The translations under genes were made by a program, and so were the position numbers. Positions 58,896-61,910 of a DNA stretch of 64,000 nt are shown one piece after another. The notes beneath the pieces were generated by a model. The model was not told where the DNA came from. It made no database searches and was given only the letters and a program-made list of their open reading frames with translations. Source of the stretch: a virus. Numbering within the stretch: the first letter of the stretch is position 1; the number at the start of each line of letters is the position of its first letter. The stretch spans positions 1-64,000 of IMG/VR virus record IMGVR_UViG_3300013137_000010; one strand, 5' to 3'.

Positions 58896-58970
58896 CTAGG
58901 TGCGATCCATGTGGTGTGGTTACCCGGCTTGGAACCGGGGTTATTGGAGGTTCGACTCCTCTCACTTAGA
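58896..58970 (+). tRNA. trnP: tRNA-Pro(UGG), irregular D-arm
   Basis: CTAGGTG/CACTTAG acceptor, CCCGG-CTTGGAA-CCGGG, GGAGG-TTCGACT-CCTCT. Confidence 0.8.
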
Positions 58971-58975
58971 CAACT

Positions 58976-59052
58976 GGTCCTGTAATGGCGGAGTCTTCTA
59001 AACTCTATGTGCATAATGGATGAAAATGAGAGTTCGAATCTCTCCTGGATCA
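58976..59052 (+). tRNA. Non-canonical D-arm-less tRNA-Arg(UCU)-like RNA
   Basis: Acceptor GGTCCTG/CTGGATC, 7-nt linker, GGAGT-CTTCTAA-ACTCT, 21-nt segment, canonical T-arm. Confidence 0.7.
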
Positions 59053-59058
59053 CAAATT

Positions 59059-59138
59059 GGCCCTGTAATGGCGGAGTTTCCTAAACTCTATGTGCATAAT
59101 TGGAATGAAAAATGAGAGTTCGAATCTCTTCTGGGTCA
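59059..59138 (+). tRNA. Non-canonical D-arm-less tRNA-Arg(CCU)-like RNA
   Basis: Near-duplicate of the previous RNA with loop TTCCTAA. Confidence 0.7.
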
Positions 59139-59406: not shown

Positions 59407-59479
59407 GGGGGCGCATGTACCAAGGCTGGCGAGAGACATTTGCAATGTTTCTGGGAGATTTCGATTATATTCGTCTCCA
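59407..59479 (+). tRNA. trnA: tRNA-Ala(UGC), atypical D-region and weak T-stem
   Basis: GGGGGCG/CGTCTCC with G3:U70, AGACA-TTTGCAA-TGTTT, discriminator A. Confidence 0.6.
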
Positions 59480-59558
59480 CTATTTTATTATAGGGTAAAT
59501 ATTATGATACTGAAATAAAAATATTTATAGATTTAAATGAATTAAAAGAAATTTATAT

Positions 59559-59632
59559 GGGTTGTGTAGTGTAACCTGCTTAGCACGAAACACTTGCAAT
59601 GTTTAAGAGGAGTTGAAATCTCACACGATCCA
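59559..59632 (+). tRNA. trnA: tRNA-Ala(UGC), 8-bp acceptor stem
   Basis: GGGTTGTG/CACGATCC with G3:U70, AAACA-CTTGCAA-TGTTT, T-stem G-GAG/CTC-A. Confidence 0.8.
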
Positions 59633-59676
59633 CATATCCGGGATGATCCTCTGTTGTATCGCAGAGCCCGGTCCAT

Positions 59677-59749
59677 GCGATTGTAGTTCAGTTGGTAGAA
59701 TACTTCCTTGGTAAGGAAGAGGTCGTGAGATCGTAACTCACCTTTCGCT
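59677..59749 (+). tRNA. trnT: tRNA-Thr(GGU)
   Basis: CTTCC-TTGGTAA-GGAAG; tandem U:U in the acceptor; T-loop ATCGTAA. Confidence 0.85.
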
Positions 59750-59757
59750 CTAAGATA

Positions 59758-59896
59758 AAGAATACATACAGCAACAAAAAAATGCATGGTTAGCAAAAAA
59801 AGTATTCTGTTCTTAAAAAATTATCTAAAGATTACATACAGCAATCTTAAAAAAGGACCAAACTTGTAATTTGAAATTCTGAAAAAATGTAATCTG
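59758..59896 (+). ncRNA. Two ATACAGCAA-containing stem-loop elements with Thr anticodon-like hairpins
   Basis: AGAATAC..GTATTCT and AGATTACA..TGTAATCT closing stems; inner loops ATGGTTA and CTTGTAA. Confidence 0.5.
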
Positions 59897-59905
59897 TGAT
59901 AAAAT

Positions 59906-59978
59906 GCGAATGTATATCAGCGGTAGATAGTCTGGTTGCCAACCAGAAGGTTCGTGGGTTCGAATCCCATCATTCGCT
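59906..59978 (+). tRNA. trnG: tRNA-Gly(GCC)
   Basis: Canonical cloverleaf, TCTGG-TTGCCAA-CCAGA. Confidence 0.92.
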
Positions 59979-59987
59979 CAGTAAATT

Positions 59988-60061
59988 GCGAAATGTAGCT
60001 TAACGGTAAAGTATCTGGCTTCCAACCAGAGGAAGGGGTTCGATTCCCACATTTCGCTCCA
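59988..60061 (+). tRNA. trnG: tRNA-Gly(UCC), 8-bp acceptor stem
   Basis: GCGAAATG/CATTTCGC, loop CTTCCAA, T-stem G-GGG/CCC-A, encoded CCA. Confidence 0.88.
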
Positions 60062-60062
60062 T

Positions 60063-60140
60063 GCGAGCATAACTCAGTAGGTTCAGAGTACTTGTCTTAC
60101 AAACAAGAAGTCGATGGTTCGACTCCATCTGTTCGCACCA
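60063..60140 (+). tRNA. trnV: tRNA-Val(UAC)
   Basis: Canonical cloverleaf, CTTGT-CTTACAA-ACAAG, encoded CCA. Confidence 0.93.
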
Positions 60141-60142
60141 AT

Positions 60143-60226
60143 GCTGATGTAGTATAGCGGCTATTACACTGGCTTTGTAACCCAGCGTCTGAGAAGACAT
60201 CGTGAGTTCGAGTCTCACCATCAGCT
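60143..60226 (+). tRNA. trnT: tRNA-Thr(UGU) with a long variable arm
   Basis: GCTGATG/CATCAGC, loop TTTGTAA, variable arm GTCT-GAGA-AGAC. Confidence 0.82.
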
Positions 60227-60236
60227 CAAAATGAAT

Positions 60237-60403
60237 GGGAAATCAACGATGAAAAGGCGGATCGTACAGGCAACGAAAGTAATCCTGATTGGATAACGAA
60301 TTGCGGATGCACCTATAGCGACCTTATTGAGGTGGTGAAAAAATGAGCAAGGGAAGCGCGTTACTAGTTACCAACGTCGCGGGTTCGAATCCCGCATTTT
60401 CCA
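60237..60403 (+). ncRNA. 167-nt tRNA-like RNA with an Ala-type acceptor and an expanded body
   Basis: GGGAAAT/ATTTTCC-A (G3:U70), perfect T-arm GCGGG-TTCGAAT-CCCGC, several internal helices, no anticodon arm. Confidence 0.7.
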
Positions 60404-60447
60404 CAAAAAAATTAAAACTTTTTTTTTCATATTATAAAAGTAAATAT

Positions 60448-60520
60448 CGAGGATATGGTGTAACCTGGTAACACGGGGCATTTGGGATGCTCAGAAGCCG
60501 TTCAAATCGGATATCTTCGA
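60448..60520 (+). tRNA. trnP: tRNA-Pro(UGG), 8-bp acceptor stem
   Basis: CGAGGATA/TATCTTCG, GGGCA-TTTGGGA-TGCTC, T-stem G-CCG/CGG-A. Confidence 0.85.
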
Positions 60521-60546: not shown

Positions 60547-60633
60547 GCCGAATTCCCATAGTGGTTGATTGGGCGTGACTTGTAATCACGAGGGTTTTTA
60601 TACCCCGCACTGGTTCGAATCCAGTATTCGGCT
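60547..60633 (+). tRNA. trnT: tRNA-Thr(UGU) with a long variable arm
   Basis: GCCGAAT/ATTCGGC, CGTGA-CTTGTAA-TCACG, variable arm GGGT-TTTTAT-ACCC. Confidence 0.85.
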
Positions 60634-60652
60634 CTCATACCTAATAAAAAAT

Positions 60653-60719: not shown

Positions 60720-61391
60720 ATGAAGTGGTCTGAAGAAGAAGAAAATGATTTAATTTCTTTATTAGAAAATGGATTTACATATTTGGATATATCTATTAAA
60801 TTAAATCGAACTAAAAAAAGTGTTAAAGAAAAAGCTAATAAGTGTGGACTTAATTTTAAGTCTTTCCTTAAAAAGGAGGCAAATAAATGCTTAGAGTGTA
60901 ATAAAGATATTGAAAAAAATAAAAAATTCTGTTCATCATCATGTTCTGCAAAACATAACAATAAAAAAAGAATTCACAAAGAATCAAATTGTATAGTTTG
61001 TGGAAACAAAACCAAAAAGTTTGGATACAAATTTTGTTCTAATAAATGTCAAATAGAACATCAATATGCTGTATATATTCAGAAGTGGAAAAATGATGAA
61101 GTTGATGGTGTGTCTGGTGAATATGGAACATCAAGATATATAAAAAAATATTTATTTGAAAAGTTTAATGGAAAATGTACGAGATGTGGATGGGGTGAAA
61201 AAAATCAATATACAGGTAATATTCCATTAGAGATAGAGCATAAAGATGGCAATAGTAAAAATAATAAAGAAGAAAATTTAACTCTATTATGTCCTAATTG
61301 TCATTCTTTAACAGAAACATATAAGGGTGCAAATAGAGGAAATGGTAGATATAATAGGCGAGAAAGATATAAAGATAAAAAATCATACTAA
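60720..61391 (+). CDS. HNH homing endonuclease inside the tRNA array
   Basis: Zinc motifs, CTRCGW and LEIEHKDGNSKNNKEENLTLLCPNCHS. Confidence 0.9.
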   Translation: MKWSEEEENDLISLLENGFTYLDISIKLNRTKKSVKEKANKCGLNFKSFLKKEANKCLECNKDIEKNKKFCSSSCSAKHNNKKRIHKESNCIVCGNKTKKFGYKFCSNKCQIEHQYAVYIQKWKNDEVDGVSGEYGTSRYIKKYLFEKFNGKCTRCGWGEKNQYTGNIPLEIEHKDGNSKNNKEENLTLLCPNCHSLTETYKGANRGNGRYNRRERYKDKKSY

Positions 61392-61672
61392 GGTCCCGTA
61401 GCTCAGCTGGATAGAGCAACAGCCTTCAAAAGGAGCTTCATAGATGAAAATGTGTGTCGAATGGTGTAAATTCAAAGAATGCTTAACAGGTAATGCTGAT
61501 GTTAACTTTGAGCGAAGTTCTTGTATAAGAAAACGTGCAGAGACTATAATCACCCACCTAAGATAGAAATATTAAGGTGAAGGCATAGTCCAGACCACAA
61601 ACAATAATTGGCAGTGAAAACTGTAGTGGTAGGCTAAGCTGTGGGTCATAGGTTTGAATCCTATCGGGATCA
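61392..61672 (+). tRNA. trnR: tRNA-Arg(UCU) interrupted by a group I intron (exons 61392-61426 and 61634-61672)
   Basis: The spliced product GGTCCCG..ACAGC-CTT|CTAA-GCTGT..CGGGATC-A is a normal cloverleaf with A20. Confidence 0.88.
61427..61633 (+). mobile_element. 207-nt group I intron (IC3-like), no ORF
   Basis: P AAATTCAAAGAA, Q AACTTTGAGC, R GTGCAGAGACTA, S AAGGCATAGTCC; U:G pair in P1 at the 5' splice site; terminal G. Confidence 0.88.
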
Positions 61673-61698
61673 CATATATTTTATATACATTTTATAAT

Positions 61699-61833: not shown

Positions 61834-61910
61834 GCCCTTGTATTGGCGGAGTTTCCTAAACTTTGTGTGCATAATGGATTAAAATGTGGGTTCAAGTCCC
61901 ATCAAGGGTA
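61834..61910 (+). tRNA. Third D-arm-less tRNA-Arg(CCU)-like RNA
   Basis: GCCCTTG/CAAGGGT, GGAGT-TTCCTAA-ACTTT, GTGCATAATGGATTAAAAT, T-arm GTGGG-TTCAAGT-CCCAT; own TATCTTTG element at 61811. Confidence 0.7.

Follow-up and report, generated by a model that had tools for sequence, protein, structure and literature searches.

The first 64 kb of the 83-kb virus record IMGVR_UViG_3300013137_000010 in IMG/VR, the stretch analyzed here and called the window throughout, carry three tRNA genes, for Ala(UGC), Gly(UCC) and Pro(UGG), whose acceptor and T stems appear to be divided into eight and four layers (8/4) rather than the canonical seven and five (7/5). Judged by comparison with their homologs, each of the three comes from a different tRNA lineage that is widespread in phages and conserves the 8/4 fold. 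We consider it likely that all three are functional elongator tRNAs of phage-borne class-I lineages, with the acceptor/T stack divided 8 + 4.

Fold of the Three Genes

ARAGORN called the three genes at the places named in the original prediction, which had been made from the letters of the window and their open reading frames (ORFs), with the anticodon at positions 37 (Ala), 34 (Gly) and 36 (Pro). The Rfam tRNA model RF00005 matched them with 34.8, 52.0 and 41.7 bits, respectively (gathering score 29). In each case, the RF00005 alignment began one base inside the stem, deleted one T-stem pair and flagged the outermost T pair as non-standard. Cloverleaves were enumerated exhaustively with an acceptor of 7–9 and a T stem of 3–6 pairs, a 2-nt linker and a single nucleotide at position 26. 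The best fold of all three genes had an acceptor of 8, a variable loop of 4 and a T stem of 4, with G:A as the sole mismatch, and the four best acceptor/T combinations per gene contained no 7/5 model. The T stem has four layers, a G opposite A and three Watson-Crick pairs. Rfam and the enumeration thus confirm what had been predicted for Ala, Gly and Pro: an 8-bp acceptor, a 4-nt variable loop and a T stem of the form G-NNN/NNN-A. The arm also keeps its length of 12 steps, as claimed, with 12 nucleotides between the T loop and the discriminator. The innermost, eighth acceptor pair is G-C in Ala and Gly and A-U in Pro. An apparent ninth pair in Ala and Pro was rejected, as it is formed by the base before the gene and the discriminator. 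In the Gly gene, CCA is encoded immediately after U73, which fixes the 3′ end and hence the count of eight pairs; its place had been predicted correctly, but the predicted end (60061) includes this CCA and the discriminator is 60058. The genes are laid out as follows.

59559–59632, plus strand: tRNA-Ala(UGC), 8/4, found by ARAGORN, Rfam and enumeration
59559–59566 with 59624–59631: Ala acceptor stem, followed by linker UA (59567–59568) and D arm (59569–59586)
59595–59597: Ala anticodon, followed by variable loop (59605–59608) and T stem (59609–59612 with 59620–59623; G59609 opposite A59623)
59632: Ala discriminator A, with no encoded CCA
59988–60061 including CCA (59988–60058 plus CCA), plus strand: tRNA-Gly(UCC), 8/4, found by ARAGORN, Rfam and enumeration
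59988–59995 with 60050–60057: Gly acceptor stem, followed by linker UA (59996–59997) and anticodon (60021–60023)
60031–60034: Gly variable loop, followed by T stem (60035–60038 with 60046–60049; G60035 opposite A60049)
60058: Gly discriminator U, followed by encoded CCA (60059–60061)
60448–60520, plus strand: tRNA-Pro(UGG), 8/4, found by ARAGORN, Rfam and enumeration
60448–60455 with 60512–60519: Pro acceptor stem, followed by linker UG (60456–60457) and anticodon (60483–60485)
60493–60496: Pro variable loop, followed by T stem (60497–60500 with 60508–60511; G60497 opposite A60511)
60520: Pro discriminator A, with no encoded CCA

Conservation and Covariation

The window has weak DNA relatives in three "uncultured phage" assemblies of 635–735 kb, LR756501, LR756502 and LR745206. 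Orthologs of the 8/4 Gly(UCC) gene are present in LR756502 (locus L001, 3006–3076) and LR745206 (L111, 5001–5071), and an ortholog of the 8/4 Pro(UGG) gene in LR756501 (L002, 4409–4480). Among the 68 distinct tRNAs of the stretches fetched from LR756501 and LR756502, phages of 642–735 kb, two were cleanly 8/4, namely the Gly and Pro orthologs. A covariance model (R1) was built from five 8/4 sequences. It gave its training sequences 74–86 bits and everything else in these two assemblies at most 46; on 73 Pro and Gly loci from IMG/VR, 65 matches reached at least 59 bits, and 7/5 relatives with the same D arm reached at most 55.5.

IMG/VR was scanned with patterns that fixed only the D arm and anticodon loop and left the acceptor and T arms free; the pattern for Ala was looser than those for Pro and Gly. 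The Pro pattern found 60 places, 53 of them 8/4, six 7/5 and one cut by a contig end. Gly matches were 8/4 in 11 of 13 cases and 7/5 in two. The 72 Ala matches comprised 35 clean 8/4 genes, 16 that were 8/4 with more than two mismatches, 12 for which there was no model, four that were 7/5-like and five that were 9/3-like. The 8/4 Pro genes lie on 52 contigs (median length 108 kb) from 29 IMG samples, and the 8/4 Gly genes on 11 contigs from 10 IMG samples.

Distinct sequences, the window's genes included, were aligned with MAFFT (30 Pro, 12 Gly and 10 Ala). The 8/4 structure paired 94–95% of the alignment cells and slid control structures 30–54%; the covariation score was reached by none of 500 shuffles in all three families. 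The eighth pair was formed in every aligned sequence, as GC in 28 and AU in two Pro sequences (30/30, the window's gene having A-U), as GC in eight and AU in four Gly sequences (12/12), and as GC in eight, AU in one and GU in one of the Ala sequences (10/10). When the Pro alignment is read in the 7/5 register, the pair that replaces it forms in one of 30 sequences and the next pair in two of 30. The homologs therefore bear out the predicted 8/4 register, with an eighth pair that covaries. In the anticodon stems, both sides have changed at five of five pairs in each family.

Features Expected of Working tRNAs

The combination of G3:U70 and A73 (Ala), that of G1:C72, C2:G71 and U73 (Gly) and A73 (Pro) are synthetase determinants. 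These identity elements stand in the normal register, counted from the 5′ end of the 8-bp stem. G3:U70 (the third pair from that end) and A73 are kept in all 10 Ala sequences, G1:C72 and C2:G71 in 12 and U73 in 11 of the 12 Gly sequences, and A73 in all 30 Pro sequences. Host AlaRS, GlyRS and ProRS should therefore charge the 8/4 tRNAs. The equivalent of U8 and the AA that starts the D loop are present in 51 of 51 distinct sequences. CCA is encoded right after the discriminator in 19 of the 51, as it is in the window's Gly gene, and the base at N-1 is U in 33 and never G. In the window's Ala gene, D-loop position 19 is C and T-loop position 56 is G; in nine of ten family members, these are G and C, respectively. 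Read from the sequence, this change (in 59573–59582 and 59613–59619) is a compensatory swap of the 19:56 tertiary pair of the elbow.

In 50 of the 51 loci with an 8/4 Pro gene, that gene is the sole Pro(UGG) tRNA of the fetched stretch. The Ala, Gly and Pro tRNAs would read GCA, GGA and CCA together with their wobble partners; GCA (48%) and CCA (51%) are the most used codons of their boxes and GGA (31%) is the second most used.

G Opposite A and the 9/3 Register

Several observations weigh against an 8/4 fold in working tRNAs. The aligned sequences had been chosen by a classifier (8/4 better than 7/5 by at least 4 points), so that the percentage of pairing at the eighth position is partly selected, the unselected figure being the share of pattern matches given above. 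The invariance of the D arms and anticodon loops comes from the design of the search patterns. The minimum free energy (MFE) structure of the Ala gene (ViennaRNA) is not a cloverleaf and is unremarkable (z = −1.25). The case for working tRNAs is made at the level of sequence, from which we infer that processing enzymes, synthetases and EF-Tu would accept them. Finally, sequence comparison cannot show G:A as a pair, and ViennaRNA pairs the closing A of the window's Gly and Pro genes with the preceding U8-equivalent.

The G:A closure that had been noted in the window is conserved across homologs. At the outer T-stem position, the 51 distinct 8/4 sequences have G:A in 45, A:A in two, A:G in one, G:C in two and C:G in one. 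The variable loop is 4 nt long in 48 of them and 5 nt in exactly the three with Watson-Crick closure. Because the two coincide, the G seems to serve both as the last nucleotide of the variable loop and as the partner of A. Such a G:A with a 4-nt loop would be expected of a sheared purine pair at the end of a helix. The T stem has three covarying Watson-Crick pairs and, in 45 of 51 sequences, a G opposite an A that may pair either with this G or with U8.

In that case, the invariant U after the eighth pair would join the conserved A in a 9/3 register. The acceptor would then have 9 bp and the T stem 3 bp, with a linker of 1 nt and a variable loop of 5 nt ending in the conserved G; the stack would again have 12 layers and would again be non-canonical. 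Of the 30 Pro sequences, 28 could form U:A or U:G. U:A could also form in all distinct Gly (9) and Ala (10) sequences, whose linker begins with U and whose closing nucleotide is A. The ninth pair is present in the MFE structures of the window's Gly and Pro. According to the available part of Mukai et al. (2017; PMC5389517), 9/3 tRNAs occur in nature. We nevertheless regard this register as rather unlikely. The ninth pair does not covary, as both partners are almost invariant, and with it only one nucleotide would link the acceptor stem to the D stem. It consumes the U that normally makes the U8:A14 tertiary pair; all 51 sequences keep A14, so that pair probably requires the U. The 9/3 register also leaves unexplained a 5′ partner that is G in 45 of 51 sequences and never a pyrimidine when the 3′ partner is A. 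Moreover, the Pro-lineage relatives L047, L048 and L066 (G:C or C:G closure, 5-nt variable loop) have a fully paired 4-bp T stem, and the Asp lineage, with G:C and A:U closures, is 8/4 with a fully paired 4-bp T stem. Taken together, the sequences favor 8/4 and make 9/3 the less likely register.

Distribution among Phages and Cells

Among 145 IMG/VR loci, 50 held 8/4 Pro only, 17 Ala only, 13 Ala with Asp(GUC) and eight Gly only; none of the 145 held Ala, Gly and Pro all in 8/4 form. In these common states (Pro alone, Ala alone, Ala with Asp, Gly alone), the rest of each array is 7/5. The original prediction had inferred a systematic redesign across isoacceptors from the three genes. This part of it was not supported: other phages usually have one 8/4 isoacceptor and, because none of the 145 loci combines all three, a coordinated redesign within one phage seems unlikely. 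Three huge phages keep 8/4 and 7/5 tRNAs of one anticodon, namely that of the window (Pro), LR756502 (Gly) and LR745206 (Gly). The 7.5-kb contig L036 has 8/4 His, Ser, Thr and Gly among its 22 tRNAs, and a Thr(UGU) lineage with the 8/4 fold, G:A and the 4-nt loop is represented in L036 (5338–5409) and L037 (2549–2621).

Carriers of 8/4 Ala and Asp include crAss-like phages. The cultured Kehishuvirus "tikkala" (OQ198717) of Bacteroides cellulosilyticus has an 8/4 tRNA-Asp(GUC) with 0 mismatches at 94148–94220, annotated as a plain tRNA-Asp. Because a cultured crAss-like Bacteroides phage carries such a gene, the questions raised by the 8/4 fold can be tested at the bench. The closest Gly and Pro tRNAs found by blastn in cultured phages (Stenotrophomonas IME-SM1, Bacillus Bc431v3, Arthrobacter Racecar, Vibrio Wyman and Streptomyces BRock) were all 7/5. 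An 8/4 Ala gene had no blastn match in the phage collection, and the stretch around the 8/4 Pro gene of L046 had no close cultured relative.

Further 8/4-like genes were observed in cultured phages. Besides the Asp gene, "tikkala" (L198; 3001–3074, 3531–3618 and 3703–3774) has an 8/4-like Ser(GCU) gene and an Ala(UGC) gene with G:A closure and a poorly paired acceptor (3 mismatches); all three are annotated as ordinary tRNAs. Class-II 8/4 tRNAs are present in Vibrio phage Wyman (L109, 1240–1329 and 2097–2183) and Stenotrophomonas phage IME-SM1 (L106, 98–181). Wyman has an 8/4 Tyr(GUA) with 0 mismatches and an 87-nt "tRNA-Gly" with a UCC anticodon and a long variable arm, which is allo-tRNA-like; the gene in IME-SM1 is an unannotated 8/4 Ser(UGA).

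Prokaryotes were scanned with the Pro pattern, one genome for each of 185,579 species. The 14 places found were eight 7/5 tRNAs, four 8/4 tRNAs and two that were not tRNAs. The four 8/4 places (L185, L187, L188 and L192) lie on contigs with 9–16 tRNAs in at most 8 kb, from metagenome-assembled genomes (MAGs) of Muribaculaceae, Nitrososphaerota, Endomicrobiaceae and Woesearchaeota. PHROG matches were to the terminase large subunit in L187 (2e-108), to RNA ligase and metallo-phosphoesterase in L192 and to a family of unknown function in L188; the only match in L185 was to a phosphoesterase family. These four are probably phage contigs binned into MAGs. Within this test of the Pro pattern on one genome per species, the 8/4 form therefore appears to be restricted to phages. 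The eight 7/5 Pro(UGG) tRNAs with the same D arm (L184, L186, L191 and L193–L197) are from Patescibacteria MAGs and one unclassified MAG. Five of them are in Saccharibacteria or Staskawiczbacteria MAGs. All eight have the unusual D arm of the GUGU/ACAC type found in the phage 8/4 Pro genes. This common D arm may hint at a source of the phage 8/4 Pro lineage.

The RNA ligase and phosphoesterase beside the tRNA array of L192 recall phage tRNA-repair modules.

Relation to the 7/5 Fold and Persistence of 8/4

In the proposed fold, the coaxial stack of acceptor and T stems would keep 12 layers and would be split 8 + 4, not 7 + 5. In effect, the 5′ strand of the T stem would have lost one nucleotide to that of the acceptor, and the would-be position 65 nucleotide would pair with the extra, eighth nucleotide. 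The layer adjacent to the junction would then be the conserved purine-purine, G opposite A. Among the 7/5 relatives that share the D arm are L065 and L085 (Pro) and L038 and L045 (Gly). The 3′ half of such relatives equals that of the 8/4 genes, and 7/5 Pro relatives with a 4-nt variable loop are equal to 8/4 Pro in total length. The 8/4 genes exceed these relatives by one nucleotide on the 5′ side of the acceptor and fall short of them by one on the 5′ side of the T stem. Two compensating indels thus separate the two states, so each should be sticky within a lineage. Our default explanation for the persistence of 8/4 is a lineage-specific, functionally near-equivalent variant that is locked in because reversion takes two indels. 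A further idea is that 8/4 might tune the interaction with EF-Tu, which reads the T stem at the three layers adjacent to the junction; Ala, Gly, Pro and Asp are weakly binding amino acids.

Anti-defense or self-marking is a more doubtful explanation, which widens the evasion of host tRNA-targeting toxins put forward in the original prediction. Here, the 8/4 form would have been selected for changing the core near U8, position 48 and the pair 49–65. In this improbable case, the phage tRNA would escape a factor that acts on tRNAs, be it a nuclease, toxin or modification enzyme of the host or one made by the phage against host tRNAs. The 8/4 fold does alter the inner junction (the exit at U8, the entry at position 48 and the layers of pairs 49:65 and 50:64). 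It was seen only in phage contexts, the cellular tRNAs of the Pro scan being all 7/5, and three huge phages keep both forms of the same anticodon. Phage tRNAs that rescue infection from tRNA-cleaving defenses are documented in the available parts of PMC11464382 and PMC11555353. As far as the available parts of the literature go, bacterial tRNA nucleases recognize anticodon loops or arms (PMC12851939; PMC13056530) or the CCA tail together with the backbone of the acceptor and T arm (PMC12851939); the anticodon arm and the 12-layer outer shape, which the nucleases described there recognize, are unchanged in 8/4. The toxin, nuclease or partner remains hypothetical. Most phages have one or two 8/4 isoacceptors, each the sole tRNA of its anticodon in the fetched stretch, and ordinary inheritance within a lineage fits equally well.

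Spelled out, the anti-defense explanation makes the following proposals, which we do not think probable. The phage-specific architecture might conceivably let a factor tell phage from host tRNAs at the junction of acceptor, T and variable regions. The G:A-closed 8/4 form would, at a stretch, have been fixed on that account in at least four class-I families (Pro, Gly, Ala and Thr), with Watson-Crick closure in Asp and His. The factor, in this unlikely case, would be either a host nuclease or toxin that is evaded or an enzyme of the phage by which the phage's own tRNAs are spared or preferred. It is similarly doubtful that the phage of the window, with 7/5 and 8/4 Pro tRNAs of the same anticodon, hedges between both.

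Comparison with Known tRNAs

The 8/4 and 9/3 tRNAs were defined by Mukai et al. (Nucleic Acids Res 2017; PMC5389517). In the available part of that paper, 8/4 tRNA-His and tRNA-Ser are described from bacteriophages and some bacteria. Like the genes of the window in the favored fold, they divide a 12-layer branch 8 + 4, and they occur in phage tRNA clusters and include a class-I case (His); these His and Ser tRNAs were judged usable in translation. They differ in isoacceptor, the window having Ala(UGC), Gly(UCC) and Pro(UGG) and its relatives adding Asp(GUC) and Thr(UGU), and in the T stem, which in the window has three Watson-Crick pairs and the conserved G opposite A, coupled to the 4-nt loop. 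The allo-tRNAs, as treated in the same part of the paper, share a partition of the 12-bp acceptor branch other than 7/5 (8/4 or 9/3). Allo-tRNAs, however, combine serine identity with anticodons that do not fit it, and they have a long variable arm and a D arm like that of tRNA-Sec, with a long stem and a tetraloop. The three genes are not allo-tRNAs: their variable loop has 4 nt, their D arm has a 4-bp stem and a 7–10-nt loop, and their anticodons agree with their identity elements.

Bacterial tRNA-Sec (8/5) and selC* tRNA-Cys (a modified 8/4 with a bulge) likewise have an 8-bp acceptor. tRNA-Sec differs in its 13 layers (8/5 or 9/4), long variable arm, UCA anticodon and need for SelB; the three genes were rejected as members on account of their 12 layers, their short variable loop (4 nt) and their anticodons (UGC, UCC and UGG). 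No RF01852 match was listed at the three genes, in output that does not display overlapping lower-scoring matches of the same clan. With canonical class-I tRNAs (RF00005), they share the D arm, the anticodon arm, the T loop, U8/A14, 18–19/55–56, the overall length and the length of the 3′ half. They differ from them by one acceptor pair more, one T-stem pair fewer and a closure that is not Watson-Crick. A 7-bp acceptor with a 5-bp T stem aligns only with the one-base shift and the deleted T pair and has no support from covariation.

RF00005 does score the genes above its threshold, and phage arrays, this one included, hold degenerate, non-canonical tRNA-like genes. It is nevertheless very improbable that the three are normal 7/5 tRNAs marked by a bulge and a weakly paired T stem: in the Pro alignment, the two outer T-stem positions of the 7/5 register pair in one and two of 30 sequences, whereas the eighth pair is kept with compensatory changes. 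Decaying pseudogenes (rejected on covariation in all three families, the anticodon stems included) and non-decoding look-alikes are as improbable, given that anticodon loops, identity elements and tertiary positions are conserved over the 29 (Pro) and 10 (Gly) IMG samples.

For 8/4 tRNAs, the literature search led to Mukai et al. (2017) and reviews of that work; we found no published report of 8/4 Ala, Gly, Pro, Asp or Thr tRNAs, although the supplements of PMC5389517 and subscription journals may hold more; the available part of a review (PMC7609411) adds nothing further on phages. As far as we have seen, the 8/4 architecture is known, and the isoacceptors, the design of G:A with a 4-nt loop, the breadth and the apparent restriction to phages are new. 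Apart from tRNA-Sec and a few exceptions, tRNAs are regarded as sharing the 7/5 cloverleaf almost universally. In dozens of metagenome samples, however, another partition appears to be the rule in entire lineages of phage tRNAs for Pro, Gly and Ala, and for Asp and Thr among relatives. These natural, sequence-diverse class-I scaffolds could be used to probe what RNase P, synthetases, EF-Tu, modification enzymes and tRNA-directed immune nucleases measure, and they are candidate orthogonal scaffolds for genetic-code engineering. They also carry a warning for annotation, as 8/4 genes score low or shifted with standard models.

Genomic Context and Other tRNA-Like Genes

CheckV puts the completeness of the record at 12%, and it is therefore a piece of a very large phage. 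The G+C content of the phage is 27.6%. The window's DNA is present in lake-water metagenomes, and no RNA sample was listed for the array. Contigs from another lake-water run (X3), whose sample is not flagged as a possible source of this DNA, cover all three 8/4 genes with 0 differences, so the sequence is not a slip of assembly. An apparent joint from 59700 to 60376 in lake-water contigs, with other letters between, was disregarded, as it came from short, high-depth contigs matching conserved parts of tRNAs.

ARAGORN places 10 tRNAs in the array at 58.9–61.9 kb; for the record, the Rfam tRNA model gives 12 matches. By enumeration, the window's seven remaining ARAGORN tRNAs are 7/5 after outer extensions are set aside. 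Two of the canonical tRNAs are relevant to the 8/4 genes.

58896–58970, plus strand: tRNA-Pro(UGG) paralog with a 7-bp acceptor, 5-bp T stem and 6-nt variable loop (ARAGORN, enumeration)
59906–59978, plus strand: tRNA-Gly(GCC), canonical 7/5 with 0 mismatches (Rfam 64.7 bits; ARAGORN)

The Pro paralog has the same anticodon as the 8/4 Pro gene and is ~90% identical to a stretch of Cellulophaga phage phi19:1. The Gly(GCC) gene lies directly upstream of the 8/4 Gly(UCC) gene. A second tRNA with a 7-bp acceptor had been predicted for each of the three amino acids. These two genes bear this out for Pro and Gly; for Ala, the element at ~59407–59482 resembles a tRNA but is non-canonical, and it is missed by both ARAGORN and Rfam.

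Among ten ORFs around the array, Pfam matches were to HNH endonuclease, CHAD, phosphatidylserine decarboxylase and DUF3326, and none of these ten neighbors matched a synthetase or an enzyme of tRNA processing. A promoter scan gave 12 promoter-like sites against 16.7 expected, and terminator-like matches in the array were rejected as tRNA arms.

Other elements of the array depart from the cloverleaf in other ways. The elements at 59407–59482 and 60237–60403 both have an alanine-type acceptor end (G3:U70/A73) without a normal cloverleaf; the former has a UGC anticodon arm with an aberrant D region and T stem, and in the latter the acceptor strands are ~135 nt apart. Three tRNA-like genes with UCU or CCU anticodon loops (58976–59052, 59059–59138 and 61834–61910) have a few nucleotides in place of the D arm and a conserved segment of ~20 nt after the anticodon stem; Rfam scores them as tRNA with 29.5, 25.5 and 27.9 bits, skipping the D region, and ARAGORN does not call them. 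In the region 60720–61675, an HNH endonuclease ORF (60720–61391; Pfam HNH, 23.7 bits) is followed by a split tRNA that starts at 61392, right at the end of the ORF. Some 200 nt resembling a group I intron separate the two parts of its anticodon loop; no intron was matched there by Rfam at E values up to 1. The tRNAs at 60143–60227 and 60547–60634 have a Thr UGU anticodon and a variable arm of 16–18 nt, which gives them a class-II shape, and these class-II-shaped Thr(UGU) tRNAs have a counterpart in LR756501 (L002, 1138–1225).

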